From NCBI RefSeq assembly GCF_022045235.1, contig NW_027266319.1:55862001-55926000 (forward strand): a stretch of DNA of 64,000 nucleotides, given 5' to 3'. Source of the DNA: Haliotis cracherodii (taxonomy: Eukaryota). Positions 34,581 through 59,974 of this stretch are shown one piece after another. The position numbers and the translations under genes are program-made. The first letter of the stretch is position 1. The number at the start of each line of letters is the position of its first letter. The notes below the pieces were generated by a model that had not been told where the DNA came from, did not search any database, and saw nothing but the letters and a program-made list of their open reading frames with translations.

Positions 34581-34746
34581 AGTCAGTGAGTGAGTATGGT
34601 TTACGCCGCTTTTAGTAATAATCCAGAAATATCACGGCGGGGGACACCAGAAATGGGCTTCAAACAGTGTACCCATGTCGGGAATCGAACCCGGGTCTTC
34701 GGCGTGACGAGCGAACGCTTTAACTACTAGGCTACCCGACCGCCCC
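34581..34746 (-). mobile_element. tRNA-derived SINE family A (~170 bp); other copies ~18972-19127(-), 23690-23851, 28108-28270, 34278-34428
   Basis: A box TAGCCTAGTAGTT (TAGCCTAGTGGTT in other copies), B box GGTTCGATTCCC, (ACTC)n tail, 12-bp TSD CTGTGCCGAAAC. Confidence 0.85.
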
Positions 34747-37700
34747 CTGTGCCGAAACTGATTCCATTAGGCGTACATGTAGAAGATAAAGTACTGGTGA
34801 AAATAATATGAATGGATCGAAAATCAATGTTGACACCAGGTGTTCGTGATGAAAAGGGTAATCATGTCCTGCTCTACCGATAGGGGCCGTAATTCATACA
34901 GTTTGCATGACAAGGTAAGTGTATGTTTGTCACCTGTCGACTTCAGCCTGTAAACAATCAAGACTGGACAAGACAATCCAGTGACACGATAACGCGTTTA
35001 CTGAATGTGTTGTCACTAGAAACACCCTGCCATGATTGGGATTGTCGAGTTAAATTCAAGGTCCACCAACCATAGTGAAGGGGACAAGCTGCAATATTCT
35101 GATGCGCCTCGGTAAATGTTTGATTGTTTGTTTGTTTGTTTGTTTGTTTGTTTGTTTTTTCTACTCAGCAATATTCCAGCTATATGACGGCGGTCTGTAA
35201 ATGATCAATTTTGGACCAGACAATCCAGTGATTGACATTATGAGCATCAATCCACGTAGTTGGGATCGATGACATGCAACAACCAAGTCAGCGAGCCTAA
35301 CCACCCGATCCCGTTAGTCGCCTCTTACGACAAGCATAGTCGCATTTTACGACAAGTATGGGTTGCTGAAGACCTATTCTTCCCCGGATCTTCACGGGTC
35401 GCCTCGGTAAATGCACAATTCACATCCACGATGCAGATCAATCATCTTTAAAGCACTGGGTATGAAATGTGTGATTGCTGGTAATAACATGCCAGTAAGT
35501 GCTATCGTGATTGCTTGTTCATTGTTTGTCGGTGTAGTGGCTCTGTTGGTTCTTTGAGGCATGTTCGCAAGATGGAATTTACCACGTCTGCCCCACAGAA
35601 TACAATACATTCAGTTCTTGCTTGATGCATATGACATCCAGTTATTTACCTAGTTCCATAGAAGACTCAGTCAATAATCGAAATCTATGATTGTGGGTTC
35701 GAATCCCAGTTCGCCCCGATTATGTTTCTAGGTTTGTCAGCACCATACCCGTGCTCGTGGGTTTCACCGAAGTGGTAAACGTCTGAGGCCTGCATCACTT
35801 CGGGCGTTCCTCCCACATTAAGCTGGCACGCCACGATATAACTGGAATACTGTTAAAAGCGGCGTTAAACCCAACTCGCAAGGCATGACTACAATAATAC
35901 CAACCGTTCCCCGCAGGAGTTGGTATGCACACGTACATGCTGGTGATGTTACTCTTCAATATTGACTTTTATCACATTACTTTTGATTATGGTTGTAATG
36001 CATCATTAAATACAATGTCTAGATCTATTCATGAATACTGTAAACACACCCAAGAATATTCAGCTGTAGCTGACTGACACTTTACTATTTCATGATGTGT
36101 TACAATGGTCAAATGTATGATCGATGTCATCAGAAAGGATGCATCTATAATTATCATGCACAGATCAATGAATATGTCATTGTCAAAACAAAGCACTCTA
36201 TTTCCAAACCGAAGCAGAATCACTGAGTTTTTCTCATTGCACTAGACCAGTAGCTAAGGTGTATGACGTATGAATACATGACACAATTCATACTACTACT
36301 TTATACTACTTCCGCCTTCTTCCCAAATAGCTGGTCGTGGGTTCAGATTGGCCTTCCAGCACCATACGCATACACTACCTGCGTCATATTAGGCGTGTTC
36401 AAGGGACACGACTCTGCACAGCGAATCGCGGCGCCTTAGACGACTGGGCCATCCGTGACCCCTCATGCAAAAGAAGAGGGACACCCGAGTAGGTGTAAAT
36501 ACGCTACATGAAATTACACCAACCATCGGTTACACCGATTTTGGTTAGTCAGTCCAGATTTGGAAAGGTCAAAACCCGATGATGTCGTATTGGCCATTGA
36601 CGCTAAAGTCATGAACATTTATTGAAAGGTGAGGACCCTCCATTCTGCATCCCTTGTGATGAAAGATCAATGTTTCAAATCATCATCTATTAAAGATCTT
36701 TTTCGTAGAATTAATTCTCGTTTAAATATTGGCTTTTAAAGGATATAGAATTATTTGAAATATTTTTGTTAATATTTTTTTAAAAACATGTTTTCAAATT
36801 CGCAACTGAGATTGTTTGTGGTTGAATCCAAGTACAGTTATATCAGTGTCCCCCTGAGAGGGTACATACGTTCCACATGCATAATGTATATGTATTATTT
36901 GTATTAAACACCTTGAATGCTAACTCTAAATGCACACAGCCGTCTTGATGTACATATTATATTTATCGCTGTACTTTATGTATGCTCTTGTACCACCGTC
37001 GGTGGTCTATGGAGAATAAAGAATCTGATATCAGTGTCCCCCTGAGAGGGTACATACGTTCCACCTCTTTCAAAGTAAATTTAAACTACCACATTTATAA
37101 GCGTAGTATATTTGTTAGTTTTAACTGGTGGATTAAACTGACTACACTTGCCAGCAGCTGAAGGGATAGTGTCAATTCTGCTGGGGAACCGTGCAGGTGG
37201 CAGAAGTATCGTCCCTACGGTTCCTTGTCCGTTTTTTATATTGTGATGTTGTTGTCTTTTACATGCTCTCAACTTGATTTAATTTGAAACTGTAATAATC
37301 TAGTTATGATACTGTCCATCACTGATGCGTGTGTGTGTGTGTATGTGTGTGTTAGGAATGTATTACTATATGTCGTCATGATATGGCTGAAATAGTGTAT
37401 TGTCGATGTGACATTGAACTATCTCACTCACTCGCTTAACATAACGAGCCGTGAAGATCCGGGATAGAATAGGTCTTCAGCAAACCATAAGGCGACCATG
37501 CTTGTCGTAAGAAGCGACTAACGGGATCGGGTGGTTAGGCTCGCTGACTTGGTTGATGCATGTCATCGAATACCAATTGCGAGGAATTATTTTCATGATA
37601 TTAATCAATGGATTGTCTGGTCCATACTCGATTATTTACAGACCGCCGTCATATAGCTGGAATATTGCTGAGTGCGCCGTTCAACAACAAACAAACAATT

Positions 37701-38341
37701 AAACATCATATACCTTTCTCATCTCATGATGATATTATTTGAATATATTTTTTTTAAAACTGCAAAAGATGTCAGTGTAGAACAATGTGAACATACATAT
37801 GCTCATGTCATAAATCCTTTTGAGGAACTACCTTTGCTGGTAATGTTGTACGATTAAACAAACAAAAAACAAAACAAATACTGTATATCAGATATACTTG
37901 ATATAATATACATTTTGCTGATTATGTTGTACGATTGCAGATCAATATTATGTTGAACGAGATGGTGGCAGTGAACACATTAGAAATCAGATACAAGCAT
38001 TACATATTGGATCACCTGTTGTCTGATATCACACCTGTAAAGACGTCTTTAATGAGCAAGACACAACAAAGGTGATTGTTATAATTATTTATTGAAACTA
38101 TTGACTTGTGGGAACACTATTCAGTAATACATTCTCGAAATCGCCTTCAAAGTGCGATGCCAGTGTCTCTTCAATAGAGTGATCTACAAAAGAAATACAT
38201 CAAATCATATGATCTTGGCATATTTGACATGAAATTATTTCTGAAGCATACATTTTCAGATACAGTTATGTTGAACGGATGATGGTTTCTACTGTATAAA
38301 ACGGATCATTGCAGTAAGATTTGCTCCACCTTACATTTGAC

Positions 38342-40557
38342 TCACTGCTCCAAGTTGTTGATGCTCCTTGCGAACTCTTCCAAACTCACGCTTGAGTCTC
38401 CTAAATGGAGAAAGGTTGTTGCAGTCAGTCAGAATAAATGTTCAGGAGTCAGATTTATTCGGGAAAAGGGTCCACATTACCCATGAGCGTCAAAACAAAT
38501 ACAAACACTTGACAAATAATTACATTATTTTAAACATTTCATTTGTATAAATGAAGTTGAAGGCAAAAGCTCTTACCATTTTCATCTGAGAACGAAAGGA
38601 GCTCCATGGCCGATCGTCTGTCCATTAGCGTCTCAGCTTCGGATAGGTCAATTGTGCCGTCCATGTTTGTATCAAGGTTATCCACATTACGTTTGCCTTG
38701 AATGAAAATAGTCATGTTTGGAAAGATACAAAATGAAAGAACACGAATGCATTTTCGGTTAAGGAATATGAGATAGTGGTCACTTTTAATCAGGCTATGA
38801 GTATTGATATCAAATGAACATATTTATATTTATCATATAATGGGTAGGTTTCTCGTCGGGATAAAGCCAACGGATAAAAACGATATCCGTTGGGGTCATA
38901 TGCGGATAGAGATGCAAATATCAAAGGTCAAGTAGGGACTACTTTCAGTGTTTATAAACAAACATGGCGTCGCACTTGTCATTCGGCGATCGAGTCAGAA
39001 TTAACCATCGTGAATCTGGATAAACTACAGGGATTTTAAAAAAACAGTCTTATATACTGAAAGTCAGTGTCGAACTGTGACGTAACTAAGGCATTTTATA
39101 GGTTTGGGCAACTTTGGAGATATAAATTTCGAAACAATTTTGCGAGGGCACAAGGCCTAGCCAAGCGGGATCAGAAGCCATATCTGTGCTTGTAGACCTC
39201 TGCGGCTTGAAACCTTTTCCACAAATAAAATAGTTGGGTTTAGGCAAAATATGTATGAATCGTTACCTTGTTTCGTTTTGGCGCTGTGTATACATCTGAC
39301 TACACTTCTTAACGTTATGACAGAACAGGCCGACTGTGAACAATCACTGGCCGTGACGTCTCATAGACTAGGGTGAGAGTAGCTTCCCTTTGACAAAGGG
39401 CAGTTACTCTAGCGGACAGACCGATGGATTGTCGCGAAAGGCAATTAAAAACAATTGTTGTTTTGCGTATATGTTGCTTCGCCACTGTATAAGAAACAGA
39501 TTTCAGTTTCAACTATATTGGCTTCTGTCACTGTCCGACTGACACATCACCTACCCTGTGACGTAATAAATATTAATGCGCGCATACCAGGAAAACTCGC
39601 AATGTTTAGGTAATGTTTGTGAGTGAGGGGAAGCGATTTTAAAGCACAGAATTGAAGAATGACATTATATGATAAAGAGGTTATCACGCTTGTGTGTTTA
39701 GGGATGGTAAATATCCTGTATTAGGAATAAACACTATGTATTTAGCTCGCCAAGCCTCGCTAAATACAATGTATATTCCTAATGCAGGATATTTACCATC
39801 CCCAAACACACTCGCGTGATAACCTCTATACATCTACAGTAACATTCCAAAACATATACTTGTTTCCATTTCAAATCGTCATCGTATATAGCTCTTCGGC
39901 TGGCTGACTAACATTTACATCAAAACAAATAGCGAACACCATTCTGTCTCATTCTGTAGTGCTTAATGACATGATCACATTTTCATTATGTTCGTTCTCT
40001 AGAATAGACTAGTCCATGTAATATTTTCATACATTCAAAAACAATGTTCGGTGTCCGTTTTCGTTCAGCAATATTCCAGGTAATATAACAGTTGGACTTA
40101 AATAACTGGGTGTGGCACAGACAATCCAGTGACTTATATCATGAGCATCGGTCTACACAACTGCATGATTATAGAAAGCATCTTGTCGGTTACAATTTTT
40201 ACACTGAAAGCAGAGTTGGCCTTTTAGGCATTTAATTTATTACTTTCATTTGAACCTGATGTAAAAGAGAGACGTTAATGTACTTGATACATCACCGATT
40301 TGGTCCTACTACAGCCGCTCATTGTTCTATAACTTAAACCGTAACTCCAGTACAGTTTGGGAAAATAGAAGATACTGTATGTCAGGCACTTAATGAAGTA
40401 CTCTTTGACTTCGCTCACCCAACAACACCCTGGCTCCAATCTTTGCTATTGTGCCAACTGTGCGCCATCTAACGAACCGTCGTCTCCGTCGTCCCCAGGC
40501 ATCAGACTGAGGGATGGAGACTATGGCCACAAGCAGGAGGACAAGGAACAAACGCAT
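38342..40557 (-). CDS. Secreted cationic peptide / EF-hand precursor, copy 1
   Basis: Exons 40557-40419, 38696-38577, 38400-38342 with intact splice sites. Protein same as copy 2 (K39). The intron carries a ~1-kb insertion. Confidence 0.86.
38829..39828. mobile_element. ~1-kb hairpin/inner-IR insertion in the peptide-gene intron (also 49093-50103)
   Basis: Absent from copies 2, 4 and 5 (empty site AACATATTTATA|TACATCTACAG in copies 2 and 4). IR 38829-38842 / 39663-39676. Palindrome 39676-39827. Confidence 0.8.
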
Positions 40558-42127
40558 CTTGGGATGTATTCTGCAGTGAAAATAAATTCTTTTAGCGAGT
40601 GAGCGAGTTGGGTTTAACGCAGCTATTAACAGTTATATCACGGCGTTTCAGCTTAATATGGGAGGGAAGGCCGCAGTGATGCAGGTTTTAGACGTTTACC
40701 ACTTCGGCGAAACCCACGAGCACGGGTATGGTGCTTACAAACTTAGAAACATAACCGGGGTGAACCGGGATTCCAACCCACAATCTGGCGTGCCCAAGGA
40801 ACGCAACTCAGCACCGCGAATTGCGGCGCCTTAGACGACAGAGCCCCCCGTGCCCCACTGAATTGTTTTAAGAAGCCGCATTCTCATGTGGGTGTGATTA
40901 TTGTTGCTGATTGCCTTATGAAACGTTGATTGCTTAAGATGTAATGGATTTGACGACTGACTATCATTACAAACAATTAAATCCTCAGTTAAATCCACAT
41001 TTTGTAACCAATGCCAACTGAAATGATAAGTTACACGTAAACTAATCAGACAGATAGTATTACTCACCAGGAGGACACGAGACAGGTCACAGTTGTTATG
41101 AATGTCATGTCCCTGGTATTTATACATTCTTTCCATTCATCAACCCGTGAAGTGAATCTGTTGCCAAAATATGTTAAGTGCCTGTTTGACAGAAACGTGC
41201 AAATGTAAATATGAAAAGAGATAAGTATCTACTTAGTCCACACCTCTTAATTGTCCTCTTTACGAGGGCTGTGTGTGAAGTGTATTTGTGTGTGATATCT
41301 ATTTTTTTAAATTGTTTGAGAATATTTAAAAGAAACTTATCACACCTCCATGTCAGAATATTCAGATCTAATTGGTTCATGTGATACTGATAAAATTCTA
41401 TGTATTTCCAGTGGGAGGGAAATACATTTCTGAGTGGGAAAATATATCCCATATACCCCGACATGAAAAAAACAGGCTGCACGTGTATTTATGAGCGAGG
41501 CCATATATATTCCACCCTGCTACGAAGCACAAAGCTGCACATTGTTTACGAGTCAAAGAATGACACGAGAGACATCACTAGTTACCCTTAGCTCATTCGA
41601 GCAGTGGTTTTCTATCTGTTTTCAATTTGTTTTAATTTTTAATCGCTGTGGCAGTATCACACGGGGTATATGTGAATTTGTGCGTCCCACGTTAGGTTTT
41701 AAACCACGAGCTGGATACTGCTACAATTTCTTATATTTGTGTACCAGAGGTGTATATGGCCATCTCTGAGAAAAATATATTTTCCATTCAGCAAACACTG
41801 GAAGCCTTCAATTTGTAGATCCAAAATAAAAGAAACCAAAACATTTGCATGTTTATAGAAAGCATCTTGTCGGTTACAATTTTTACACTGAAAGCACAGT
41901 TGTATGTAAACTTGTAGACTTAAATATTCTCAAACAATTTTTTTTAAAAATAAATTTCACACACAAATACACTTCACACACAGCCCTCGTAAAGAGGACA
42001 ATTAGGAGGTGTGGACTAAGTAGATACTTATCTCTTTTCATATTTACATTTGCACGTTTCTGTCAAACAGGCACTTAACATATTTTGGCAACAGATTCAC
42101 TTCACGGGTTGATGAATGGAAAGAATG

Positions 42128-42190
42128 TATAAATACCAGGGACACGACATTCATAACAACTGTGACCTGTCTCGTGTCCTTCTGGTAAGT
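42128..42190 (+). promoter_or_regulatory. TATA box and short non-coding first exon of the peptide gene (copy 2)
   Basis: TATAAATA at 42128-42135, then a GTAAGT donor at 42185-42190 and an acceptor at 42690 just upstream of the ATG. Equivalent TATA boxes at 41117-41124(-), 51393-51400(-), 52392-52399(+), 58753-58760(-). Confidence 0.55.
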
Positions 42191-42703
42191 AATACTTTAG
42201 GCACTATCTGTCTGATTAGTTTATGTGTAACTTATCATTTCAGTTGGCATTGGTTACAAAATGTGGATTTAACTGAGGATTTAATTGTTTGTAATGATAG
42301 TCAGTCGTCAAATCAATTACATCTTAAGCAATCAGCGTTTCATAAGGCAATCAGCAACAATATTCACACCCACATGAGAATGCGGCTTCTTAAAACAATT
42401 CAGTGGGGCACGGGGAGCTCAGTCGTCTAAGGTGCCGCAATTCGCGGTGCTGAGTTGCGTTCCTTGGGCACGCCAGATTGTGGGTTGGAATCCCGGTTCA
42501 CCCCGATTATGTTTCTAAGTTTGTAAGCACCATACCCGTGCTCGTGGGTTTCGCCGAAGTGGTAAACGTCTAAAACCTGCATCACTGCGGCCTTCCCTCC
42601 CATATTAAGCTGAAACGTCGTGATATAACTGTTAATAGCTGCGTTAAACCCAACTCGCTCACTCGCTAAAAGAATTTATTTTCACTGCAGAATACATCCC
42701 AAG

Positions 42704-43812
42704 ATGCGTTTGTTCCTTGTCCTCCTGCTTGTGGCCATAGTCTCCATCCCTCAGTCTGATGCCTGGGGACGACGGAGACGACGGTTCGTTAGATGGCGCA
42801 CAGTTGGCACAATAGCAAAGATTGGAGCCAGGGTGTTGTTGGGTGAGTGAAGCCAAAGAGTACTTCATTAAGTGCCTGACATGCAGTATCTTCTATTTTC
42901 CCAAACTGTACTGGAGTTACGGTTTAAGTTATAGAACAATGAGCGGCTGTAGTAGGACCAAATCGATGATGTATCAAGTACATTAACGTCTCTCTTTTAC
43001 ATCAGGTTCAAATGAAAGTAATAAATTAAATGCCTAAAAGGCCAACTCTGCTTTCAGTGTAAAAATTGTAACCGACAAGATGCTTTCTATAATCATGCAG
43101 TTGTGTAGACCGATGCTCATGATATAAGTTACTGGATTGTCTGTGCCACACCCAGTTATTTAAGGACCACTGTCGTTAAGCACTACAGAATGAGACAAGA
43201 TGTTGTTCGTTATTTGTTTTGATGTAAATCTAAGTCAGCCAGCCGAAGAGCTATATACATGTACGATGACGATTTGAAATGGAAACGTGTATATGTTTTG
43301 GAATGTTACTGTAGATGTATATAAATATGTTCATTTGATATCAATACTCATAGCCTGATTAAAAGTGACCACTATCTCATATTCCTTAACCGAAAATGCA
43401 TTCGTGTTCTTTATTTTGTATCTTTCCAAACATGACTATTTTCATTCAAGGCAAACGTAATGTGGATAACCTTGATACAAACATGGACGGCACAATTGAC
43501 CTGTCCGAAGCTGAGACGCTAATGGACAGACGATCGGCCATGGAGCTCCTTTCGTTCTCAGATGAAAATGGTAAGAGCTTTTGCCTTCAACTTCATTGAT
43601 ACAAATGAAATGTTTATTACTTTTAAAATAATGTAATTATTTGTCAAAGGTTTGTATTTTTTTACTCTCATGGGTAATGTGGACCCTTTTCCCGAATAAA
43701 TCTGACTCCTGAACATTTATTCTGACTGACTGCAACAACCTTTCTCCATTTAGGAGACTCAAGCGTGAGTTTGGAAGAGTTCGCAAGGAGCATCAACAAC
43801 TTGGAGCAGTGA
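42704..43812 (+). CDS. Secreted cationic peptide / EF-hand precursor, copy 2 (105 aa; putative antimicrobial-peptide precursor)
   Basis: Manual splice of coding exons 42704-42842, 43451-43570, 43754-43812 (GT-AG, phase 1/1). Translation: MRLFLVLLLVAIVSIPQSDA|WGRRRRRFVRWRTVGTIAKIGARVLL|GKR|NVDNLDTNMDGTIDLSEAETLMDRRSAMELLSFSDENGDSSVSLEEFARSINNLEQ*. Acceptor cag ends at 42690 just before the ATG. AATAAA at 44061. The function is inferred. Confidence 0.88.
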
Positions 43813-44810
43813 GTCAAATGTAAGGTGGAGCAAATCTTACTGCAATGATTCGTTTTATACAGTAGAAACCGTCATCCGTTCAACATAACTGTATCTGAAA
43901 ATGTATGCTTCAGCAATAATTTCATGTCAAATATGCCAAGATCATATGATTTGATGTATTTCTTTTGTAGATCACTCCATTGAAGAGACACTGGCATCGC
44001 ACTTTGAAGGCGATTTCGAGGATGTATTCCTGAATAGTGTTCCCACAAGTCAATAGTTTCAATAAATAAGTATAACAATCACCTTTGTTGTGTCTTGCTC
44101 ATTAAAGACGTCTTTACAGGTGTCATTTCAGACAACAGGTGATCCAATATGTAATGCTTGTATCTGATTTCTAATGTGTTCACTGCCACCATCTCGTTCA
44201 ACATAATATTGATCTGCAATCGTACACCAACATAATCAGCAAAATGTATATTATATCAAGTATATCTGATATACAATAGTTGTTTTGTTTGTTGTTTGTT
44301 TAATCGTACAACATTACCAGCAAAGGTAGTTCCTCAAAAGGAGTTATGACATTAGCATATGTATGTTCACATTGTTCTACACTGACATCTTTTGCAGTTT
44401 TTAAAAAAATATATTCAAATAATATCATCATGAGATGAGAAAGGTATATGATGTTTAATTGTTTGTTTGTTGTTGAACGGCGCACTCAGCAATATTCCAG
44501 CTATATGACGGCGGTCTGTAAATAATCGAGTATGGACCAGACAATCCATTGATTAATATCATGAAAATAATTCCTCGCAATTGGTATTCGATGACATGCA
44601 TCAACCAAGTCAGCGAGCCTAACCACCCGATCCCGTTAGTCGCTTCTTACGACAAACATGGTCGCCTTATGGTTTGCTGAAGACCTATTCTATCACGGAT
44701 CTTCACGGCTCGTTATGTTAAGCGAGTGAGTGAGATAGTTTAATGTTAACGTCACATCGACAATACACTACTTCAGTCATATCATGACGACATATAGTTA
44801 TACATTCCTA

Positions 44811-44812
44811 AC

Positions 44813-44894
<82 letters not shown>
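44811..44894 (+). repeat. (CA)n microsatellite (mirror (TG)n at 47548-47612)
   Basis: Directly visible; length differs among amplicon units. Confidence 0.9.
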
Positions 44895-44898
<4 letters not shown>

Positions 44899-47544
44899 CA
44901 GTGATGGACAGTATCATAAGTAGATTATCACAGTTTCAAATTAAATCAAGTTGAGAGCATGTAAAAGACAACAACAACACAAAAAAACGGACAAGGAACC
45001 GTAGGGACGATACTTCTGCCACCTGCATGGTTCCCCAGCAGAATTGACACTATCCCTTCAGCTGCTGGCAAGTGTAGTCAGTTTAATCCACCAGTTAAAA
45101 CTAACAAATATACTACACTTATAAATGTGACAGTTTAAATTTACTTTGAAAGATGTGGAACGTATGTACCCTCTCAGGGGGACACTGATATCAGATTCTT
45201 TATTCTCCATAGACCACCGACGGTGGTACAAGAGCATACTTAAAGTACAGAGATAAATATAATATGTACATCAAGACGGCTGTGTGCATTTAGAGTTAGC
45301 ATTCAAGGTGTTTAATACAAATAATACATATACATTATGCATGTGGAACGTATGTACCCTATCAGGGGGACACTGATATCACTGTACTTGGATTCAACCA
45401 CAAACAATCTCAGTTGCGAATTTGAAAACATGTTTTTAAAAAAATATTAACAAAAATATTTCAAATAATTCTATATCCTTTAAAAGCCAATATTTAAACG
45501 AGAATTAATTCTACGAAAAAGATCTTTAATAGATGATGATTTGAAACATTGATCTTTCATCACAAGGGATGCAGAATGGAGGGTCCTCACCTTTCAATAA
45601 ATGTTCACGACTTTAGCGTCAATGGCCAATACGACATCATCGGTTTTTGACCTTTCCAAATCTGGACTGACTAACCAAAATCGGTGTAACCGATGGTTGG
45701 TGTAATTTCATGTAGCGTATTTACACCTACTCGGGTGTCCCTCTTCCTTTGCATGAGGGGTCACGGGTGGCCCAGTCGTCTAAGGCGCCGCTATTCCATT
45801 GAACACACCAGAAACCTATGATTGTGGGTTCGAATCCCAGTTCGCCCCGATTATGTTTCTAGGTTTGTCAGCACCATACCCGTCTCGTGGGTTTCACCGA
45901 AGTGGTAAACTTTTGAAACCTGCATCACTTTGGACTTTCCTCCCACATTAAGCTGACAGGCCGTGATATAACTGGAATATTGTTAAAAGCGGCGTTAAAC
46001 CCAACTCACTCACTCACTCCTTTGCATTAGATCATTGATGTAACATCTAATTACAAGCTAATAATCACTGTCACAGATTTGTTGAGTGTTTTTGCAGCCG
46101 TATCGGCCATTGAAACATGGCTGGGTAACCACCAAAAGACGATGTCATATTGGCCAGTAGCTATTAAAACACGCCATATCATTAAAACACGCAAAAATGT
46201 CGACCGAGAGTGGATGTTTACATGACACATTTTGTAATAGCCTGAAGGCACGAAGGAGAATGGGAAAAGGTATAAGCTGTTTATGTTCAGATTGGTTCTT
46301 GATATATTTTAGTGCTGTTAAAATGACATTTGCTTCTACTGTGAATATGGAACTGTTATATGGTAATCTTGAAGATAGTGTTCTAGATCCAATGATAGTG
46401 ACATTAGCAACTGTGCCACCATCCTTGGATCCATCTGTAAGAAGAAAACAGCGTTATCCCTATCCCCCGCCATTATAATTATATTTGTTCATTTAGTAGT
46501 GGATATAACCAACGCAAAGTATCAATATGCATGTTTCAAAGTAGAGTAGAGGAATGCCTAGAAACATAATCGGGGCGAACTGCGATTCGAACCCACAATC
46601 ATAGGTTTCTGGTGTGTTCATGGGACACGACTCTGCACAGCGACTCGCGGCGCCTTAGACGACTGGGCCATCCGTGACCCCTCATGCAAAAGAAGAGGGA
46701 CACCCGAATAGGTGTAAATACGCTACATGAAATTACACCAACCATCGGTTACACCGATTTTTGTTAGTCAGTCCAGATTTGGAAAGGTCAAAAACCGATG
46801 ATGTCGTATTGGCCATTGACGCTAAAGTCATGAACATTTATTGAAAGGTGAGGACCCTCCATTCTGCATCCCTTGTGATGAAAGATCAATGTTTCAAATC
46901 ATCATCTATTAAAGATCTTTTTCGTAGAATTAATTCTCGTTTAAATATTGGCTTTTAAAGGATATAGAATTATTTGAAATATTTTTGTTAATATTTTTTT
47001 AAAAACATGTTTTCAAATTCGCAACTGAGATTGTTTGTGGTTGAATCCAAGTACAGTGATATCAGTGTCCCCCTGATAGGGTACATACGTTCCACATGCA
47101 TAATGTATATGTATTATTTGTATTTAACACCTTGAATGCTAACTCTAAATGCACACAGCCGTCTTGATGTACACATTATATTTATCTCTGTACTTTAAGT
47201 ATGCTCTTGTACCACCGTCGGTGGTCTATGGAGAATAAAGAATCTGATATCAGTGTCCCCCTGAGAGGGTATATACGTTCCACATCTTTCAAAGTAAATT
47301 TAAACTGTCACATTTATAAGCGTAGTATATTTGTTAGTTTTAACTGGTGGATTAAACTTACTACACTTGCCAGCAGCTGAAGGGATAGTGTCAATTCTGC
47401 TTGGGAACCGTGCAGGTGGCAGAAGTATCGTCCCTAAGGTTCCTTGTCCGTTTTTTATATTGTGTTGTTGTTTTCTTTTACATGCTCTCAACTTGATTTA
47501 ATTTGAAACTGTGATAATCTAGTTATGATACTGTCCATCACTGA

Positions 47545-47615
<71 letters not shown>

Positions 47616-48605
47616 GGAATGTATAACTATATGTCGTCATGATATGGCTGAAATAGTGTATTGTCGATGTGACATTGAACTATCTCACTCACTCGCTTAA
47701 CATAACGAGCCGTGAAGATCCGTGATAGAATAGGTCTTCAGCAAACCATAAGGCGACCATGCTTGTCGTAAGAAGCGACTAACGGGATCGGGTGGTTAGG
47801 CTCGCTGACTTGGTTGATGCATGTCATCGAATACCAATTGCGAGGAATTATTTTCATGATATTAATCACTGGATTGTCTGGTCCATACTCGATTATTTAC
47901 AGACCGCCGTCACATAGCTGGAATATTGCTGAGTGCGGCGTTCAACAACAAACAAACACTCAAACATCATATACCTTTCTCATCTCATGATGATATTATT
48001 TGAATATATTTTTTTAAAAACTGCAAAAGATGTCAGTGTAGAACAATGTGAACATACATATGCTCATGTCATATCTCCTTTTGAGGAACTACCTTTGCTG
48101 GTAATGTTGTACGATTAAACAAACAAAAAACAAAACAAATACTGTATATCAGATATACTTGATATAATATACAATTTGCTGATTATGTTGTTGTACGATT
48201 GCAGATCAATATTATGTTGAACGAGATGGTGGTAGTGAACACATTAGAAATCAGATACAAGCATAACATATTGGATCACCTGTTGTCTGAAATGACACCT
48301 GTAAAGACGTCTTTAATGAGCAAGACACAACAAAGGTGATTGTAATAATTATTTATTGAAACTATTGACTTGTGGGAACACTATTCAGGAATACATCCTC
48401 GAAATCGCCATCAAAGTGCGATGCCAGTGTCTCTTCAATAGAGTGATCTACAAAAGAAATACATCAAATCATATGATCTTGGCATAGTTGACATGAAATT
48501 ATTGCTGAAGCATACATTTTCAGATACAGTTATGTTGAACGGATGACGGTTTCTACTGTATAAAACGGATCATTGCAGTAAGATTTGCTCCACCTTACAT
48601 TTGAC

Positions 48606-50833
48606 TCACTGCTCCAAGTTGTTGATGCTCCTTGCGAACTCTTCCAAACTCACGCTTGAGTCTCCTAAATGGAGAAAGGTTGTTGCAGTCAGTCAGAATA
48701 TATGTTCAGGAGTCAGATTTATTCGGGCAAAGGGTCCACATTACCCATGAGCGTCAAAACAAATACAAACACTTGACAAATAATTACATTATTTTAAACA
48801 TTTCATTTGTATAAATGAAGTTGAAGGCAAAAGCTCTTACCATTTTCATCTGAGAACGAAAGGAGCTCCATGGCCGATCGTCTGTCCATTAGCGTCTCAG
48901 CTTCGGATAGGTCAATTGTCCCGTCCATGTTTGTATCAAGGTTATCCACATTACGTTTGCCTTGAATGAAAATAGTCATGTTTGGAAAGATACAAAATGA
49001 AAGAACACGAATGCATTTTCGGTTAAGGAATATGAGATAGTGGTCACTTTTAATCAGGCTATGAGTATTGATATCAAATGAACATATTTATATTTATCAT
49101 ATGGGTAGGTTTCTCGTCGGGATAAAGCCAACGGATAAAAACGATATCCGTTGGGGTCATATGCGGATAGAGATGCAAATATCAAAGGTCAAGTAGGGAC
49201 TACTTTCAGTGTTTATAAACAAACATGGCGTCGCACTTGTCATTCGGCGATCGAGTCAGAATTAACCATCGTGAATCTGGATAAACTACAGGGATAACTG
49301 ATACAATTATTTTAAAAAAACAGTCTTATATACTGAAAGTCAGTGTCGAACTGTGTCGTAACTAAGGCATTTTATAGGTTTGGGCAACTTTGGAGATATA
49401 AATTTCGAAACAATTTTGCGAGGGCACAAGGCCTAGCCAAGCGGGATCAGAAGCCATATCTGTGCTTGTAGACCTCTGCGGCTTGAAACCTTTTCCACAA
49501 ATAAAATAGTTGGGTTTAGGCAAAATATGTATGAATCGTTACCTTGTTTCGTGTTGGCGCTGTGTATACATCTGACTACACTTCTTAACGTTATGACAGA
49601 ACAGGCCGACTGTGAACAATCACTGGCCGTGACGTCTCATAGACTAGGGTGAGAGTAGCTTCCCTTTGACAAAGGGCAGTTACTCTAGCGGACAGACCGA
49701 TGGATTGTCGCGAAAGGCAATTAAAAACAATTGTTGTTTTGCGTATATGTTGCTTCGCCACTGTATAAGAAACAGATTTCAGTTTCAACTATATTGGCTT
49801 CTGTCACTGTCCGACTGACACATCACCTACCCTGTGACGTAATAAATATTAATGCGCGCATACCAGGAAAACTCGCAATGTTTAGGTAATGTTTGTGAGT
49901 GAGGGGAAGCGATTTTAAAGCACAGAATTGAAGAATGACATTATATGATAAAGAGGTTATCACGCTTGTGTGTTTAGGGATGGTAAATATCCTGTATTAG
50001 GAATAAACACTATGTATTTAGCTCGCCAAGGCTCGCTAAATACAATGTATATTCCTAATGCAGGATATTTACCATCCCCAAACACACTCGCGTGATAACC
50101 TCTATACATCTTCAGTAACATTCCAAAACATATACTTGTTTCCATTTCAAATCGTCATCCTATATAGCTCTTCGGCTGGCTGACTAACATTTACATCAAA
50201 ACAAATAGCGAACACCATTCTGTCTCATTCTGTAGTGCTTAATGACATGATCACATTTTCATTATGTTCGTTTTCTAGATTAGACTAGTCCATGTAATAT
50301 TTTCATACATTCAAAAACAATGTTCGGTGTCCGTTTTCGTTCAGCAATATTCCAGGTAATATAACAGTTGGACTTAAATAACTGGGTGTGGCACAGACAA
50401 TCCAGTGACTTATATCATGAGCATCGGTCTACACAACTGCATGATTATAGAAAGCATCTTGTCGGTTACAATTTTTACACTGAAAGCAGAGTTGGCCTTT
50501 TAGGCATTTAATTTATTACTTTCATTTGAACCTGATGTAAAAGAGAGACGTTAATGTACTTGATACATCACCAATTTGGTCCTACTACAGCCGCTCATTG
50601 TTCTATAACTTAAACCGTAACTCCAGTACAGTTTGGGAAAATAGAGGATACTGTATGTCAGGCACTTAATGAAGTACTCTTTGGCTTCGCTCACCCAACA
50701 ACACCCTGGCTCCAATCCGTGCTATTGTGCCAACTGTGCGCCATCTAACGAACCGTCGTCTCCGTCGTCCCCAAGCATCAGACTGAGGGATGGAGACTAT
50801 GGCCACAAGCAGGAGGACAAGGAACAAACGCAT
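48606..50833 (-). CDS. Secreted cationic peptide / EF-hand precursor, copy 3
   Basis: Exons 50833-50695, 48960-48841, 48664-48606; intact. K39R (AAG>CGG). Same ~1-kb intron insertion as copy 1. Confidence 0.86.
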
Positions 50834-52967
50834 CTTGGGATGTATTCTGCAGTGAAAATAAATTCTTTTAGCGAGTGAGCGAGTTGGGTTTAACGCAGCT
50901 ATTAACAGTTATATCACGGCGTGTCAGCTTAATATGGGAGGGAAGGCCGCAGTGATGCAGGTTTTAGACGTTTACCACTTCGGCGAAACCCACGAGCACG
51001 GGTATGGTGCTTACAAACTTAGAAACATAACCGGGGTGAACCGGGATTCCAACCCACAATCTGGCGTGCCCAAGGAACGCAACTCAGCACCGCGAATTGC
51101 GGCGCCTTAGACGACTGAGCCCCCCGTGCCCCACTGAATTGTTTTAAGAAGCCGCATTCTCATGTGGGTGTGATTATTGTTGCTGATTGTCTTATGAAAC
51201 GCTGATTGCTTAAGATGTAATGGGTTTGACGACTGACTATCATTACAAACAATTAAATCCTCAGTTAAATCCACATTTTGTAACCAATGCCAACTGAAAT
51301 GATAAGTTACACGTAAACTAATCAGACAGATAGTATTACTCACCAGGAGGACACGAGACAGGTCACAGTTGTTATGAATGTCGTGTCCCTGGTATTTATA
51401 CATTCTTTCCATTCATCAACCCGTGAAGTGAATCTGTTGCCAAAATATGTTAAGTGCCTGTTTGACAGAAACGTGCAAATGTAAATATGAAAAGAGATAA
51501 GTATCTACTTAGTCCACACCTCTTAATTGTCCTCTTTACGAGGGCTGTGTGTGAAGTGTATTTGTGTGTGATATCTATTTTTTTAAATTGTTTGAGAATA
51601 TTTAAAAGAAACTTATCACACCTCCATGTCAGAATATTCAGATCTAATTGGTTCATGTGATACTGATAAAATTCTATGTATTTCCAGTGGGAGGGAAATA
51701 CATTTCTGAGTGGGAAAATACCCCGACATGAAAAAAACAGGCTGCACGTGTATTTATGAGCGAGGCCATATATATTGCACCCTGCTACGAAGCACAAAGC
51801 TGCACATTGTTTACGAGTCAAAGAATGACACGAGAAACATCACTAGTTACCCTTAGCTCATTCGAGCAGTGGTTTTCTATCTGTTTTCAATTTGTTTTAA
51901 TTTTTAATCGCTGTGGCAGTATCACACGGGGTATATGTGAATTTGTGCGTCCCACGTTAGGTTTTAAACCACGAGCTGGATACTGCTACAATTTCTTATA
52001 TTTGTGTACCAGAGGTGTATATGGCCATCTCTGAGAAAAATATATTTTCCATTCAGCAAACACTGGAAGCCTTCAATTTGTAGATCCAAAATAAAAGAAA
52101 CCAAAACATTGGCATGTTTATAGAAAGCATCTTGTCGGTTACAATTTTTACACTGAAAGCACAGTTGTATGTAAACTTGTAAACTTAAATATTCTCAAAC
52201 AATTTTTTTTAAAATAAATATCACACACAAATACACTTCACACACATCCCTCGTAAAGAGGACAATTAGGAGGTGTGGACTAAGTAGATACTTATCTCTT
52301 TTCATATTTACATTTGCACGTTTCTGTCAAACAGGCACTTAACATATTTTGGCAACAGATTCACTTCACGGGTTGATGAATGGAAAGAATGTATAAATAC
52401 CAGGGACACGACATTCATAACAACTGTGACCTGTCTCGTGTCCTTCTGGTAAGTAATACTTTAGGCACTATCTGTCTGATTAGTTTACGTGTAACTTATC
52501 ATTTCAGTTGGCATTGGTTACAAAATGTGGATTTAACTGAGGATTTAATTGTTTGTAATGATAGTCAGTCGTCAAATCCATTACATCTTAAGCAATCAGC
52601 GTTTCATAAGGCAATCAGCAACAATAATCACACCCACATGAGAATGCGGCTTCTTAAAACAATTCAGTGGGGCACGGGGAGCTCAGTCGTCTAAGGCGCC
52701 GCTATTCGCGGTGCTGAGTTGCGTTCCTTGGGCACGCCAGATTGTGGGTTGGAATCCCGGTTCACCCCGGTTATGTTTCTAAGTTTGTAAGCACCATACC
52801 CGTGCTCGTGGGTTTCGCCGAAGTGGTAAACGTCTAAAACCTGCATCACTGCGGCCTTCCCTCCCATATTAAGCTGACACGCCGTGATATAACTGTTAAT
52901 AGCTGCGTTAAACCCAACTCGCTCACTCGCTAAAAGAATTTATTTTCACTGCAGAATACATCCCAAG

Positions 52968-54077
52968 ATGCGTTTGTTCCTTGTCCTCCTGCTTGTGGCC
53001 ATAGTCTCCATCCCTCAGTCTGATGCCTGGGGACGACGGAGACGACGGTTCGTTAGATGGCGCACAGTTGGCACAATAGCACGGATTGGAGCCAGGGTGT
53101 TGTTGGGTGAGTGAAGCCAAAGAGTACTTCATTAAGTGCCTGACATACAGTATCTTCTATTTTCCCAAACTGTACTGGAGTTACGGATTAAGTTATAGAA
53201 CAATGAGCGGCTGTAGTAGGACCAAATCGGTGATGTATCAAGTACATTAACGTCTCTCTTTTACATCAGGTTCAAATGAAAGTAATAAATTAAATGCCTA
53301 AAAGGCCAACTCTGCTTTCAGTGTAAAAATTGTAACCGACAAGATGCTTTCTATAATCATGCAGTTGTGTAGACCGATGCTCATGATATAAGTTACTGGA
53401 TTGTCTGTGCCACACCCAGTTATTTAAGGACCACTGTCGTTAAGCACTACAGAATGAGACAAGATGTTGTTCGTTATTTGTTTTGATGTAAATCTTAGTC
53501 AGCCAGCCGAAGAGCTATATACATGTACGATGACGATTTGAAATGGAAACGTGTATATGTTTTGGAATGTTACTGTAGATGTATATAAATATGTTCATTT
53601 GATATCAATACTCATAGCCTGATTAAAAGTGACCACTATCTCATATTCCTTAACCGAAAATGCATTCGTGTTCTTTCATTTTGTATCTTTCCAAACATGA
53701 CTATTTTCATTCAAGGCAAACGTAATGTGGATAACCTTGATACAAACATGGACGGCACAATTGACCTGTCCGAAGCTGAGACGCTAATGGACAGACGATC
53801 GGCCATGGAGCTCCTTTCGTTCTCAGATGAAAATGGTAAGAGCTTTTGCCTACAACTTCATTGATACAAATGAAATGTTTATTACTTTTAAAATAATGTA
53901 ATTATTTGTCAAGTTTTTGTATTTTTTTACTCTCATGGGTAATGTGGACCCTTTTCCCGAATAAATCTGACTCCTGAACATTTATTCTGACTGACTGCAA
54001 CAACCTTTCTCCATTTAGGAGACTCAAGCGTGAGTTTGGAAGAGTTCGCAAGGAACATCAACAACTTGGAGCAGTGA
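52968..54077 (+). CDS. Secreted cationic peptide / EF-hand precursor, copy 4
   Basis: Exons 52968-53106, 53716-53835, 54019-54077; intact. K39R, and C-terminal FARNINNLEQ (S>N). Confidence 0.86.
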
Positions 54078-54678
54078 GTCAAATGTAAGGTGGAGCAAAT
54101 CTTACTGCAATGATCCGTTTTATACAGTAGAAACCGTCATCCGTTCAACATAACTGTATCTGAAAATGTATGCTTCAGCAATAATTTCATGTCAAATATG
54201 CCAAGATCATATGATTTGATGTATTTCTTTTGTAGATCACTCCATTGAAGAGACACTGGCATCGCACTTTGAAGGCGATTTCGAGGATGTATTCCTGAAT
54301 AGTGTTCCCACAAGTCAATAGTTTCAATAAATAATTATAACAATCACCTTTGTTGTGTCTTGCTCATTAAAGACGTCTTTACAGGTGTCATTTCAGACAA
54401 CAGGTGATCCAATATGTAATGCTTGTATCTGATTTCTAATGTGTTCACTGCCACCATCTCGTTCAACATAATATTGATCTGCAATCGTACAACAACATAA
54501 TCAGCAAAATGTATATTATATCAAGTATATCTGATATACAATATTTGTTTTGTTTGTTGTTTGTTTAATCGTACAACATTACCAGCAAAGGTAGTTCCTC
54601 AAAAGGAGTTATGACATTAGCATATGTATGTTCACATTGTTCTACACTGACATCTTTTGCAGTTTTTAAAAAAATATA

Positions 54679-54819
54679 NNNNNNNNNNNNNNNNNNNNNN
54701 NNNNNNNNNNNNNNNNNNNNNNNNNNNNNNNNNNNNNNNNNNNNNNNNNNNNNNNNNNNNNNNNNNNNNNNNNNNNNNNNNNNNNNNNNNNNNNNNNNNN
54801 NNNNNNNNNNNNNNNNNNN
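54679..54819. other. Assembly gap (others at 18766-18907 and 55858-55990)
   Basis: Runs of N. Confidence 1.
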
Positions 54820-56968
54820 TCATAAGTAGATTATCACAGTTTCAAATTAAATCAAGTTGAGAGCATGTAAAAGACAACAACAACACAATATAAAAAAACG
54901 GACAAGGAACCGTAGGGACGATACTTCTGCCACCTGCACGGTTCCCCAGCAGATTTGACACTATCCCTTCAGCTGCTGGCAAGTGTAGTCAGTTTAATCC
55001 ACCAGTTAAAACTAACAAATATACTACGCTTATAAATGTGATAGTTTAAATTTACTTTAAAAGAGGTGGAACGTATATATCCTCTCAGGGGGACACTGAT
55101 ATCAGATTCTTTATTCTCCATAGACCACCGACGGTGGTACAACAGCATACATAAAGTACAGAGATAAATATAATATGTACATCAAGACGGCTGTGTGCAT
55201 TTAGAGTTAGCATTCAAGGTGTTAAATACAAATAATACATATACATTATGCATGTGGAACGTATGTACCCTATCAGGGGGACACTGATATCACTGTACTT
55301 GGATTCAACCACAAACAATCTCTATTTTTTTAAAAACATGTTTTCAAATTCGCAACTGAGATTGTTTGTGGTTGAATCCAAGTACAGTGATATCAGTGTC
55401 CCCCTGAGAGGGTACATACGTTCCACATGCATAATGTATATGTATTATTTGTATTTAACACCTTGAATGCTAACTCTAAATGCACACAGCCGTCTTGATG
55501 TACATATTATATTTATCTCTGTACTTTAAGTATGCTCTTGTACCACCGTCGGTGGTCTATGGAGAATAAAGAATCTGATATCAGTGTCCCCCTGAGAGGG
55601 TACATACGTTCCACATCTTTCAAAGTAAATTTAAACTGTCACATTTATAAGTGTAGTATATTTGTTAGTTTTAACTGGTGGATTAAACTGACTACACTTG
55701 CCAGCAGCTGAAGGGATAGTGTCAATTCTGCTGGGGAACCGTGCAGGTGGCAGAAGTATCGTCCCTACGGTTCCTTGTCCGTTTTTTATATTGTGTTGTT
55801 GTTGTCTTTTACATGCTCTCAACTTGATTTAATTTGAAACTGTGATAATCTACTTATNNNNNNNNNNNNNNNNNNNNNNNNNNNNNNNNNNNNNNNNNNN
55901 NNNNNNNNNNNNNNNNNNNNNNNNNNNNNNNNNNNNNNNNNNNNNNNNNNNNNNNNNNNNNNNNNNNNNNNNNNNNNNNNNNNNNNNNNNTTGTCATGAT
56001 ATGACTGAAATAGTGTATTGTCGATGTGACGTTAACATTGAACTATCTCACTCACTCGCTTAACATAACGAGCCGTGAAGATCCGGGATAGAATAGGTCT
56101 TCAGCAAACCATAAGGCGACCATGCTTGTCGTAAGAAGCGACTAACGGGATCGGGTGGTTAGGCTTGCTGACTTGGTTGATGCATGTCATCGAATACCAA
56201 TTGCGAGGAATTATTTTCATGATATTAATCACTGGATTGTCTGGTCCATACTCGATTATTTACAGACCGCCGTCACATAGCTGGAATATTGCTGAGTGCG
56301 GCGTTCAACAACAAACAAACACTTAAATATCATATACCTTTCTCATCTCATGATGATATTATTTGAATATATTTTTTTTTAAACTGCAAAAGATGTCAGT
56401 GTAGAACAATGTGAACATACATATGCTCATGTCATAACTCCTTTTGAGGAACTACCTTTGCTGGTATTGTTGTACGATTAAACAAACAACAGACAAAACA
56501 AATATTGTATATGCGATATACTTGATATAATATACATTTTGCTGATTATGTTGTTGTACGATTGCAGATCAATATTATGTTGAACGAGATGGTGGCAGTG
56601 AACACATTAGAAATCAGATACAAGCATTACATATTGGATCACCTGTTGTCTGAAATGACACCTGTAAAGACGTCTTTAATGAGCAAGACACAACAAAGGT
56701 GATTGTTATAATTATTTATTGAAACTATTGACTTGTGGGAACACTATTCAGGAATACATCCTCGAAATCGCCTTCAAAGTGCGATGCCAGTGTCTCTTCA
56801 ATAGAGTGATCTACAAAAGAAATACATCAAATCATATGATCTTGGCATATTTGACATGAAATTATTGCTGAAGCATACATTTTCAGATACAGTTATGTTG
56901 AACGGATGATGGTTTCTACTGTATAAAACGGATCATTGCAGTAAGATTTGCTCCACCTTACATTTGAC

Positions 56969-58184
56969 TCACTGCTCCAAGTTGTTGATGCTCCTTGCGA
57001 ACTCTTCCAAACTCACGCTTGAGTCTCCTAAATGGAGAAAGGTTGTTGCAGTCAGTCAAAATAAATGTTCAGGAGTCAGATTTATTCGGGAAAAGGGTCC
57101 ACATTACCCATGAGCGACAAAACAAATACAAACACTTGACAAATAATTACCTTAATTTGAACATTTCATTTGTATAAATGAAGTTGAAGGCAAAAGCTCT
57201 TACCATTTTCATCTAAGAACGAAAGGAGCTCCATGGCCGATCGTCTGTCCATTAGCGTCTCAGCTTCGGATAGGTCAATTGTGCCGTCCATGTTTGTATC
57301 AAGGTTATCCACATTACGTTTGCCTTGAATGAAAATAGTCATGTTTGGAAAGATACAAAATGAAAGAACACGAATGCATTTTCGGTTAAGGAATATGAGA
57401 TAGTGGTCACTTTTAATCAGGCTATGAGTATTGATATCAAATGAATATATTTATATACATCTACAGTAACATTCCAAAACATATACTCGTTTCCATTTCA
57501 AATCGTCATCGTATGTAGCTCTTCGGCTGGCTGTCTAAGATTTACATCAAAACAAATAACGAACAACATTCTGTCTCATTCTGTAGTGCTTAATGACATG
57601 ATCACATTTTCATTATGTTCGTTTTCTAGATTAGACTAGTCCATGTAATATTTTCATACATTCAAAAACAATGTTCGGTGTCCGTTTTCGTTCAGCAATA
57701 TTCCAGGTAATATAACAGTGGGACTTAAATAACTGGGTGTGGCACAGACAATCCAGTGACTTATATCATGAGCATCGGTCTACACAACTGCATGATTATA
57801 GAAAGCATCTTGTCGGTTACAATTTTTACACTGAAAGCAGAGTTGGCCTTTTAGGCATTTAATTTATTACTTTCATATGAACCTGATGTAAAAGAAAGAC
57901 GTTAATGTACTTGATACATCATCGATTTGGTCCTATCACAGCCGCTCATTGTTCTATAACTTAAACCGTAACTCCATTACAGTTTGGGAAAATAGAAGAA
58001 ACTGTATGTCAGGCACTTAATGAAGTACTCTTTGACTTCGCTCACCCAACAACACCCTGGCTCCAATCTTTGCTATTGTGCCAACTGTGCGCCATCTAAC
58101 GAACCGTCGTCTCCGTCGTCCCCAAGCATCAGACTGAGGGATGGAGACTATGGCCACAAGCAGGAGGACAAGGAACAAACGCAT
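56969..58184 (-). CDS. Secreted cationic peptide / EF-hand precursor, copy 5
   Basis: Exons 58184-58046, 57323-57204, 57027-56969; intact. K39, and LSFLDEN (S>L before EF-hand 2). Confidence 0.86.
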
Positions 58185-59974
58185 CTTGGGATGTATTCTG
58201 CAGTGAAAATAAATTCTTTTAGCGTGTGAGCGAGTTGGGTTTAACGCAGCTATTAACAGTTATATCACGGCGTGTCAGCTTAATATGGGAGGGAAGGCCG
58301 CAGTGATGCAGGTTTTAGACGTTTACCACTTCGGCGAAACCCACGAGCACGGGTATGGTGCTTACAAACTTAGAAACATAACCGGGGTGAACCGGGATTC
58401 CAACCCACAATCTGGCGTGCCCAAGGAACGCAACTCAGCACCGCGAATTGCGGCGCCTGAGACGACTGAGCCCCCCGTGCCCCACTGAATTGTTTTAAGA
58501 AGCCGCATTCTCATGTGGGTGTGATTATTGTTGCTGATTGCCTTATGAAACGCTGATTGCTTAAGATGTAATGGATTTGACGACTGACTATCATTACAAA
58601 CAATTAAATCCTCAGTTAAATCCACATTTTGTAACCAATGCCAACTGAAATGATAAGTTACACGTAAACTAATCAGACAGATAGTGCATAAAGTATTACT
58701 CACCAGAAGGACACGAGACAGGTCACAGTTGTTATGAATGTCGTGTCCCTGGTATTTATACATTCTTTCCGTTCATCAACCCGTGAAGTGAATCTGTTGC
58801 CAAAATATGTTAAGTGCCTGTTTGACAGAAACGTGCAAATGTAAATATGAAAAGAGATAAGTATCTACTTAGTCCACGCCTCCTAATTGTCCTCTTTACG
58901 AGGGCTGTGTGTGAAGTGTATTTGTGTGTGATATCTATTTTTTTAAATTGTTTGAGAATATTTAAAAGAAACTTATCACACCTCCATGTCAGAATATTCA
59001 GATCTAATTGGTTCATGTGATACTGATAAAATTCTATGTATCTCAAGTGGGAGGGAAATATATTTCTGAGTGGGAAAATATATCCCTTATTCCCCGACAT
59101 GAAAAAAACAGGCTGCACGTGTATTTATGAGCGAGGCCATATATATTGCACCCTACTACGAAGCACAAAGCTGCACATTGTTTACGAGTCAAAGAATGAC
59201 ACGAGAGACATCACTAGTTACCCTTAGCTCATTCGAGCAGTGGTTTTCGATCTGTTTTCAATTTGTCTTAATTTTTAATCGCTGTGGCAGTATCACACAG
59301 GGTATATGTGAATTTGTGCGTCCCACGTTAGGTTTTAAACCACGAGCTGGATACTGCTACAACTTCTAATATTTGTGTACCAGAGGTGTATATGGCCATC
59401 CCTGAGAAAAATATATTTTCCATTCACAAAACACTGGAAGCCTTCAAAACAACTGATGCATGAAAATACCACTGGGTCACAGGTCAATTAAATTTATTGT
59501 ATAAGCGCACTTTACAGATATTGTCTCGGTGGGGCGTCCTCTGGCCACTTTGGTTCAGCTGCTGTCACATCTGTCAATCACTTTAACATACATCACAGGG
59601 GAAAGGTCAACAAGAAAGGTGACATCGATTTCGAGTAGTTCACATAAGTTTGATAAATACATGATGCCTATGTTTGAAGTAATTTGTTACTTATTGAATA
59701 TTGAGTCACGGTCAAAAAATTGTTTTCTATTCCTCCTTGTAATGACAAACATGTTTATACCATATCGCCATAGCTTGAAACTTAAAAAACACTTGGGACA
59801 GAGAATTCGAAATTCGTCGTAGTTCTTAAGTTCTTAAATGTGTACCCGAGTCTGTAAATGTGTACGTGAGGCTATTGTTGTGTATAGAATACAGCACTTA
59901 AGTAACTGTTAGGTCTTCAAATCTGCACATACACCATTTCGCAAACTACAATGTATATTTATCTATGCTGTAAA

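Follow-up and report, generated by a model that had tools for sequence, protein, structure and literature searches.

Which product is encoded by a chain of inverted gene copies in the black abalone (Haliotis cracherodii) genome, and how has the chain been built and kept uniform? We address this question for a window of 64,000 nucleotides on contig NW_027266319.1 (positions 55,862,001-55,926,000; the contig is called C56 below), for which the original prediction described five intact copies of a short gene in alternating orientation. The window contains only the left end of the array (36392-64000); the rest lies beyond its right edge and runs to contig position ~56,057,700, with 22 copies in total. 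Our best explanation, to which we assign a probability of roughly two in three, is that this multi-copy, mostly inverted array encodes a likely secreted precursor, which would be cut into an amidated, arginine-rich and probably antimicrobial peptide and an acidic tail with EF-hands, for which calcium binding is predicted.

Gene copies in the window and in the complete array

All five window copies were rebuilt exon by exon, and their number, strands and coordinates are as originally predicted. From TATA box to poly(A) signal, copy 1 occupies 38088-41124 on the minus strand (coding sequence, CDS, 40557-38342, with a 1-kb insert in intron 2) and copy 2 occupies 42128-44066 on the plus strand (CDS 42704-43812); copy 3 lies at 48352-51400 (minus; CDS 50833-48606), copy 4 at 52392-54331 (plus; CDS 52968-54077) and copy 5 at 56715-58760 (minus; CDS 58184-56969). 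Each of the five keeps an open reading frame of 318 nt (105 amino acids, aa) with GT..AG introns, together with the TATA box, the exon-1 donor, the exon-2 acceptor and the poly(A) signal. In copy 2, a non-coding exon 1 ending at 42184 is followed by exon 2 (42691-42842), exon 3 (43451-43570), exon 4 (43754-43819) and, after an intron at 43820-43970 in the 3' untranslated region (3'-UTR), by exon 5 from 43971; this fifth, 3'-UTR exon had been missed. As had been claimed, only three amino-acid variants distinguish the five proteins, namely K39R in copies 3 and 4, S83L in copy 5 and S99N in copy 4; another three codons show silent differences.

The pair formed by copies 1 and 2 recurs as the pair formed by copies 3 and 4, at measured offsets of 10264-10276 where ~10.3 kb had been predicted. 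When the window is compared with itself, block 36392-44413 aligns with 46611-54678 at 97.9% identity, and the inverted arms are 95.6-97.0% identical.

A search of the assembly with exon 2 gives 32 matches: 22 (97-100% identity) in a single 155-kb array, 17 of them past the window's right end, and five in each of two further clusters on the same contig, B and C. The 22 copies are oriented -+-+-+-+--+-+-++-+-+-+, so that 19 of the 21 neighbouring pairs are inverted (p 1e-4). All 22 copies have the five-exon structure, the open frame is kept in 21, and the oddities found in a single copy each are a premature stop (R30), a change of the amidation glycine to valine and the loss of one leucine. Only copy 6 (55,928,178, plus strand), in which codon 30 is a stop and which also has Gly47Asp, is clearly a pseudogene.

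The predicted precursor and its family

The database proteins that are identical to the array product are annotated as uncharacterised proteins of Haliotis cracherodii. In copy 2 (plus strand), hydrophobicity and the family alignment place a predicted signal peptide at residues 1-20 (42704-42763). The predicted mature peptide follows at residues 21-46 (42764-42841; 3181 Da), containing nine Arg/Lys and neither acidic residues nor Cys, and then comes a Gly-Lys-Arg cleavage and amidation signal (42842-43458), the Gly codon of which is split by the phase-1 intron 2. Residues 50-105 (43459-43812, exons 3-4) form an acidic putative pro-domain of net charge -11 and pI 4.05 with EF-hand loops at 55-66 and 84-95. 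Loop 1 is canonical (12 residues, acidic ligands at 1, 3, 5 and 12, Gly at 6), while loop 2 has Ser at 6. Over residues 21-105, basic and acidic side chains balance at 14 each.

A variable, strongly cationic segment between conserved processing signals is the pattern of host-defence peptide precursors. Since the precursor shows this pattern, as myticalins do, we infer secretion, cleavage, amidation and membrane attack. The signal would be removed after residue 20, a convertase would cut at Lys-Arg, and carboxypeptidase trimming and amidation at Gly47 would yield a 26-residue peptide of charge +9, basic at its head and hydrophobic and helical towards its tail, which may bind and disrupt microbial membranes. 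The acidic EF-hand pair would act as a charge-neutralising pro-domain that keeps the peptide neutral in storage.

A profile search of 1.84 billion proteins gives 212 hits, 21 of them at E 1e-10 or better. Among the 29 proteins looked up by name, full-length hits come from four Haliotis species, Gigantopelta aegis, Pinctada fucata (the protein EFCBP) and Saccostrea echinata. The family alignment consists of 32 hand-picked full-length members; redundant rows and fragments were left out, as were two sequences much extended at the N-terminus, a repeat protein from a lancelet and long proteins with multiple EF-hands. In this alignment Gly-Lys-Arg is present in 26 of the 32 members, the middle segment has a net charge of +4 or more in 30 and is free of Cys in 30, and the tail is acidic in every member (net charge -5 or less). 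Conservation across the family is highest in EF loop 1. Between closely related sequences, the divergence sits in the peptide: the red abalone orthologs depart from the black abalone consensus at five or six of the 26 peptide residues and at none of the other 79 (Fisher p 7e-4 and 1e-4), and between cluster B and the array 33 of 124 exon-2 sites are different, but only 7 of 120 in exon 3.

Cluster B (53,858,600-53,902,100) consists of five same-strand paralogs of 100 aa with a different, 22-residue peptide; its EF exon is 90-93% identical to that of the array at the protein level. Cluster C (815,800-840,600) also contains inverted pairs; its five paralogs (-,+,-,-,+) encode 142 aa with a 39-residue peptide and a longer acidic tail. 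Searching with exon 3 adds five weaker places (C56 at 2.35-2.37 Mb and 0.72 Mb, and contig C23 at 41.1 Mb), which probably represent further family members. A protein of the lancelet Branchiostoma belcheri has a similar signal, a Trp-Arg run and an acidic follow-on without a clear EF-hand, a resemblance that may be convergent.

Several structural searches were also made. An earlier structure model (pLDDT 59, pTM 0.20) was set aside as too poor. With a model of pLDDT 66, Foldseek finds no match at E 0.001 or better; the best E is 0.011, and the weak matches are troponin C, parvalbumin and calmodulin. The best score in the ESM Atlas search (0.80) is at chance level, and a prediction of the complex between peptide and EF-hand tail (score 0.02, made without an alignment) was counted neither for nor against. 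A LEAP-2 match on exon 2 (E 0.069) and one Moricin match were treated as compositional.

Spliced transcripts are shown in relatives only. Among four putative RNA runs from related organisms, intron 3 is joined in contigs of all four and intron 4 in contigs of three; in two of these runs exon depth is 1e4-1e5 and intron depth about 0-30, contig depth being a poor measure of expression. A run search listed no RNA run containing the exact window sequence, a result that speaks neither way.

Copy number

The depth of sequencing contigs was taken over window positions 29400-41350 from four DNA runs, three of which are from the same organism (in two studies) and one from a relative. The hand-computed ratio of four gene bins free of high-copy repeats to two single-copy-like bins is about 9, 9, 9 and 8 in the four runs; note that contig depth is not copy number, and that rare variants are dropped, which lowers the depth of copies 1-3% apart. 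The original prediction would have been in doubt had read depth shown one or two copies per haplotype. No such result is seen, and the amplification of an effector-like gene holds. The array is real and two or fewer copies are excluded by depth; the count of 22 is unproven.

As to the count alone, and compatible with the best explanation above, the assembly might have placed both haplotypes in tandem, with a true number nearer 10 per haplotype. We consider this possible, if doubtful. The depth ratio of about 8-9 in all four runs favours it, as do copies 15 and 16 (99.8% identical over 3.5 kb). Some doubling is possible because large blocks match at 97.7-98.0%, near the species heterozygosity of 1.56% given in part of PMC9709981. 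However, the joined region contains one block at 36-44, at 46-54 and again at 70-78 kb, and a pair of haplotypes cannot supply three occurrences, so that doubling alone is insufficient; in addition, junction spacers differ between most palindromes, the dropping of variants depresses depth, and the DNA runs may represent other individuals with other counts. Thus the earlier suggestion that some units are uncollapsed haplotypes may hold for the exact number but does not account for the whole array.

Duplication history and probable gene conversion

The palindromes of the array differ in their centres. The head-to-head palindrome of copies 1 and 2 has a 590-bp spacer (41330-41919), found again at 51606-52184 and in pair 7/8; the tail-to-tail palindrome of copies 2 and 3 has one of 693 bp (45864-46556); and copies 4 and 5 form a fold-back palindrome with a spacer of only 35 bp (55323-55357, centre 55340) and inner arms 96% identical. 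Other array palindromes have spacers of 257, 458, 832, 948 and 1493 bp. This arm comparison reached pair 19/20, and left out pairs 3/4, 8/9, 11/12, 13/14 and 14/15, for which neighbouring repeats were picked.

Two intron-2 markers help to trace the duplications. A TA-flanked, high-copy insert of 1 kb is present in copies 1, 3 and 7 only (38827-39826 in copy 1, terminating in a 158-bp hairpin at 39673-39830; 49091-50102 in copy 3), and is likely a non-autonomous transposon; a 128-bp deletion is shared by copies 2, 4, 6 and 8. The insert (copies 1, 3 and 7), the deletion and the 590-bp spacer travel together with the duplicated block. An inverted duplication followed by a tandem duplication, as originally proposed, therefore describes copies 1-4 well, but not the whole array: because there are 22 copies and many different inversion junctions and spacers, more than two events are needed, and the sequence calls for many independent inversions and block duplications. 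Repeated fold-back inversion together with block duplication would produce this pattern.

The amplification had also been called very recent, which is not borne out, since most copy pairs differ by 1-3% and the gene is multi-copy in red abalone as well. The red abalone ortholog (105 aa) is represented by at least eight accessions, for which a 13-Mb contig is listed. Within the black abalone array, copies 15 and 16 are the only pair without differences across the aligned gene; the higher pairwise differences of copies 8 and 14 come from their flank ends.

Several observations point instead to exchange of sequence between copies. The intron markers group copies by arm, whereas the two-base change K39R groups them by pair (3, 4, 7 and 8 versus 1 and 2), as arm-to-arm conversion would give. 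In a compatibility test of 19 copies (copies 20 and 22 were set aside as divergent and copy 16 as a duplicate), 929 of 2775 pairs of informative sites are incompatible, and neighbouring sites are more compatible than in shuffled order (p 2e-4). When copies 20 and 22 are compared with the remaining 20, introns 1-3 are 23-32% different and exon 5 ~20%, but exon 2 only ~1.4%. The island of identity extends from ~15 bases before this exon to ~60 bases after it, and one silent difference is seen in ~38 silent sites (p about 6e-4). Because selection on the protein cannot hold silent sites, gene conversion is the likely cause: the copies are recombinant mosaics, the coding exons of which look gene-converted. 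Conversion would keep these exons uniform within the species, and it explains the uniform protein better than youth does, so that uniformity is not a sign of recent origin. With the array, a single peptide would be made at a higher dose, and a variant newly arisen in it could spread through the copies.

Weighing the explanations

Some results count against a secreted antimicrobial precursor. The helical hydrophobic moment of the array peptide is not above that of shuffled sequences (p 0.57), so that a classical amphipathic helix is rejected for it, and the moment reaches p<0.05 in only 11 of the 32 family members. Family-wide identity is 37% in the signal, 29% in the peptide and 40% in the tail, a modest contrast. 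The EF-hand matches fall below curated cut-offs (22.8 bits for Pfam EF-hand_1 against 25.4). Charges of peptide and tail correlate at rho -0.35 (p 0.065, n 29, with three truncated or near-duplicate rows dropped), but at rho -0.12 (p 0.56, n 25) when one clade is thinned, and the idea of charge co-variation was rejected. The depth of 8-9-fold is below the 22 copies of the assembly, and the runs that show splicing are only presumed to be RNA, derive from other organisms and have no tissue label. Finally, the only named relative, EFCBP of the pearl oyster, is described as shell-related in part of PMC3120837.

This last point leads to a different product, a protein of shell formation or wound repair, in which mantle calcium would be handled by the acidic domain with its EF-hands, or by the precursor left whole, and the basic segment would be an anchor or spacer. 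It agrees with the published reading of EFCBP, as seen in sections of the literature, and EFCBP (ABF48089.1) is a full-length match (E 1.2e-9) that scores 55.7 bits on a leave-out profile against 38 or less for generic EF-hand proteins. EF loop 1 being the best conserved element also suits a calcium function. According to a passage of PMC3120837, which cites Huang et al., EFCBP rises at once after shell damage; a damaged shell is also a wound, so that this induction fits defence too. Relatives P0049 and P0185 carry the names EFCB1 and EFCB2, which in Lottia are minor components of the shell proteome as far as PMC4094399 was consulted, while a term search of the main text of PMC6003135, on the shell proteome of H. 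laevigata, finds no mention of EF-hands. The abalone protein Hdh-SMP5 was tried and rejected as a different protein, having 134 aa, three EF-hands, 9 Arg+Lys and pI 4.31 in the relevant part of PMC10741955, against two loops and 15 Arg+Lys here. A shell function leaves the conserved Gly-Lys-Arg, the +9 segment and the confinement of interspecies change to the peptide unexplained, and we regard it as quite unlikely.

The same processing might also release a fast-evolving reproductive or signalling peptide (a membrane-active peptide of gametes, a pheromone or a neuropeptide) that is not aimed at microbes. Gly-Lys-Arg processing is common to neuropeptides, and the species-specific change of the peptide fits sexual selection as well. 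Abalone sperm do store fast-evolving cationic proteins with an acidic partner (PMC6952181, in part), but that partner, FITZAP (sp6), was rejected as a counterpart of the array protein: the text seen describes an N-terminal poly-Asp stretch, disorder and two exons, and makes no mention of an EF-hand. Moreover, the relatives keep the charge of the peptide rather than its sequence or length (23-46 aa), unlike ligands with a fixed C-terminal motif, and EFCBP is reported from mantle in the consulted part of PMC3120837. We consider such a function very unlikely, and retain the amidated antimicrobial peptide with an EF-hand pro-domain as the preferred explanation.

A wider proposal extends this preferred explanation to a widespread, unnamed molluscan family of antimicrobial peptides in abalones, Gigantopelta, pearl oyster and oyster. 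In it, every peptide would have a calmodulin-like EF-hand cage of its own, from which calcium or cleavage would set it free, "shell EF-hand proteins" such as EFCBP would be precursors that have been misread, the palindrome chain would serve as a conversion machine sweeping one species-specific peptide through ~20 copies, and copy number would be a candidate factor in resistance to withering syndrome. As a whole this is unlikely, in our estimate. The main text of a population-genomic paper (PMC13229213), searched by term, does not mention antimicrobial peptides, EF-hands or copy number.

Repeats within and beside the array

Intron 1 of the copies, except copies 20 and 22, contains a SINE-like high-copy repeat (42405-42670). 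LINE-type frames are found within the array between copies 5 and 6 (60215-63670, plus strand; 894 and 257 aa) and also outside it (6479-9732 and 10298-11374, both minus; 752, 343 and 359 aa); similarity between these two elements is 73%, and their class was judged from the sequence by eye. Two different 171-bp tandem repeats, ~65% alike, occupy 16515-17249 (4.3 copies) and 24352-25237 (5.2 copies). Between copies 20 and 21, a further tandem repeat with a unit of 207-210 bp extends over ~3.4 kb (contig ~56,030,600-56,034,100).

Significance

Few linear antimicrobial peptides are known from molluscs, and this locus provides a candidate, strongly amplified, from a species that is endangered and has been reduced by a bacterial disease. 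The abalone antimicrobial peptides in the portion of the literature seen are molluscidin, macins and peptides cleaved out of other proteins. We found no description of the present family as cationic peptides in the open-access literature, a search that does not cover the subscription journals in which much mollusc immunology appears. If correct, our explanation would join two mussel designs in one gene, the myticalin peptide and the mytimycin EF-hand tail, would give a handle on the role of the mytimycin-type tail, and would call for a fresh look at whether EFCBP is a shell protein. Arrays of immune effectors are in themselves ordinary, and more interest attaches to the gene product; the array does offer a clean case of gene conversion in exon islands.

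Comparison with known systems

In inverted multi-copy arrays, such as the palindromes of mammalian Y chromosomes, conversion from arm to arm and from copy to copy keeps copies alike. In comparison with the Y palindromes, the abalone array has arms of 1-4 kb with 95-97% identity, and its copies are homogenised most strongly in short islands that surround the coding exons.

As for the product, the closest parallel is found in the myticalins, for which antimicrobial activity has been tested (passages of PMC5577615 and PMC12294457). According to the same passages, they share with the array gene a signal, a Cys-free, Arg-rich, hypervariable peptide of similar length, a dibasic site, an amidation Gly and an anionic extension, as well as a non-coding first exon, an ATG at the start of exon 2, a phase-1 intron and a clustered multigene family. 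However, the myticalin tail is of low complexity, whereas the tail here is a predicted EF-hand pair that matches EF-hand models and calmodulin-type chains; myticalins have three exons with the dibasic site in exon 2, whereas the array gene has five with Lys-Arg in exon 3, so that intron 2 precedes Lys-Arg here and follows it there; and the array copies are homogenised, whereas myticalins are hyperdiverse within their cluster. No Mytilus or Modiolus myticalin is among the named hits of the profile search, most of the 212 hits not having been looked up and no direct comparison having been made.

Mytimycins, in the part of PMC8004829 consulted, likewise have an anionic EF-hand extension directly after a dibasic site, but their mature peptide is rich in Cys (54 aa, 12 Cys), whereas the array peptide is linear with no Cys in residues 21-46. 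Pinctada fucata EFCBP, described in part of the citing paper PMC3120837 as a shell-related calcium-binding protein, matches over its full length (profile positions 3-122), with a signal, a Trp-Arg-rich segment of +15, Gly-Lys-Arg and an EF-hand pair; it differs in a short Cys-containing insert after Lys-Arg and has ~35% identity. The array protein is likely a homolog of EFCBP. Judged by its predicted features, the precursor would work like a myticalin but departs from that family in tail and exon structure, and it falls outside the mytimycins on its cysteines. The best reading of the gene product is a candidate linear antimicrobial precursor, amplified in dosage, which would combine a myticalin-like peptide with a mytimycin-like EF-hand tail.

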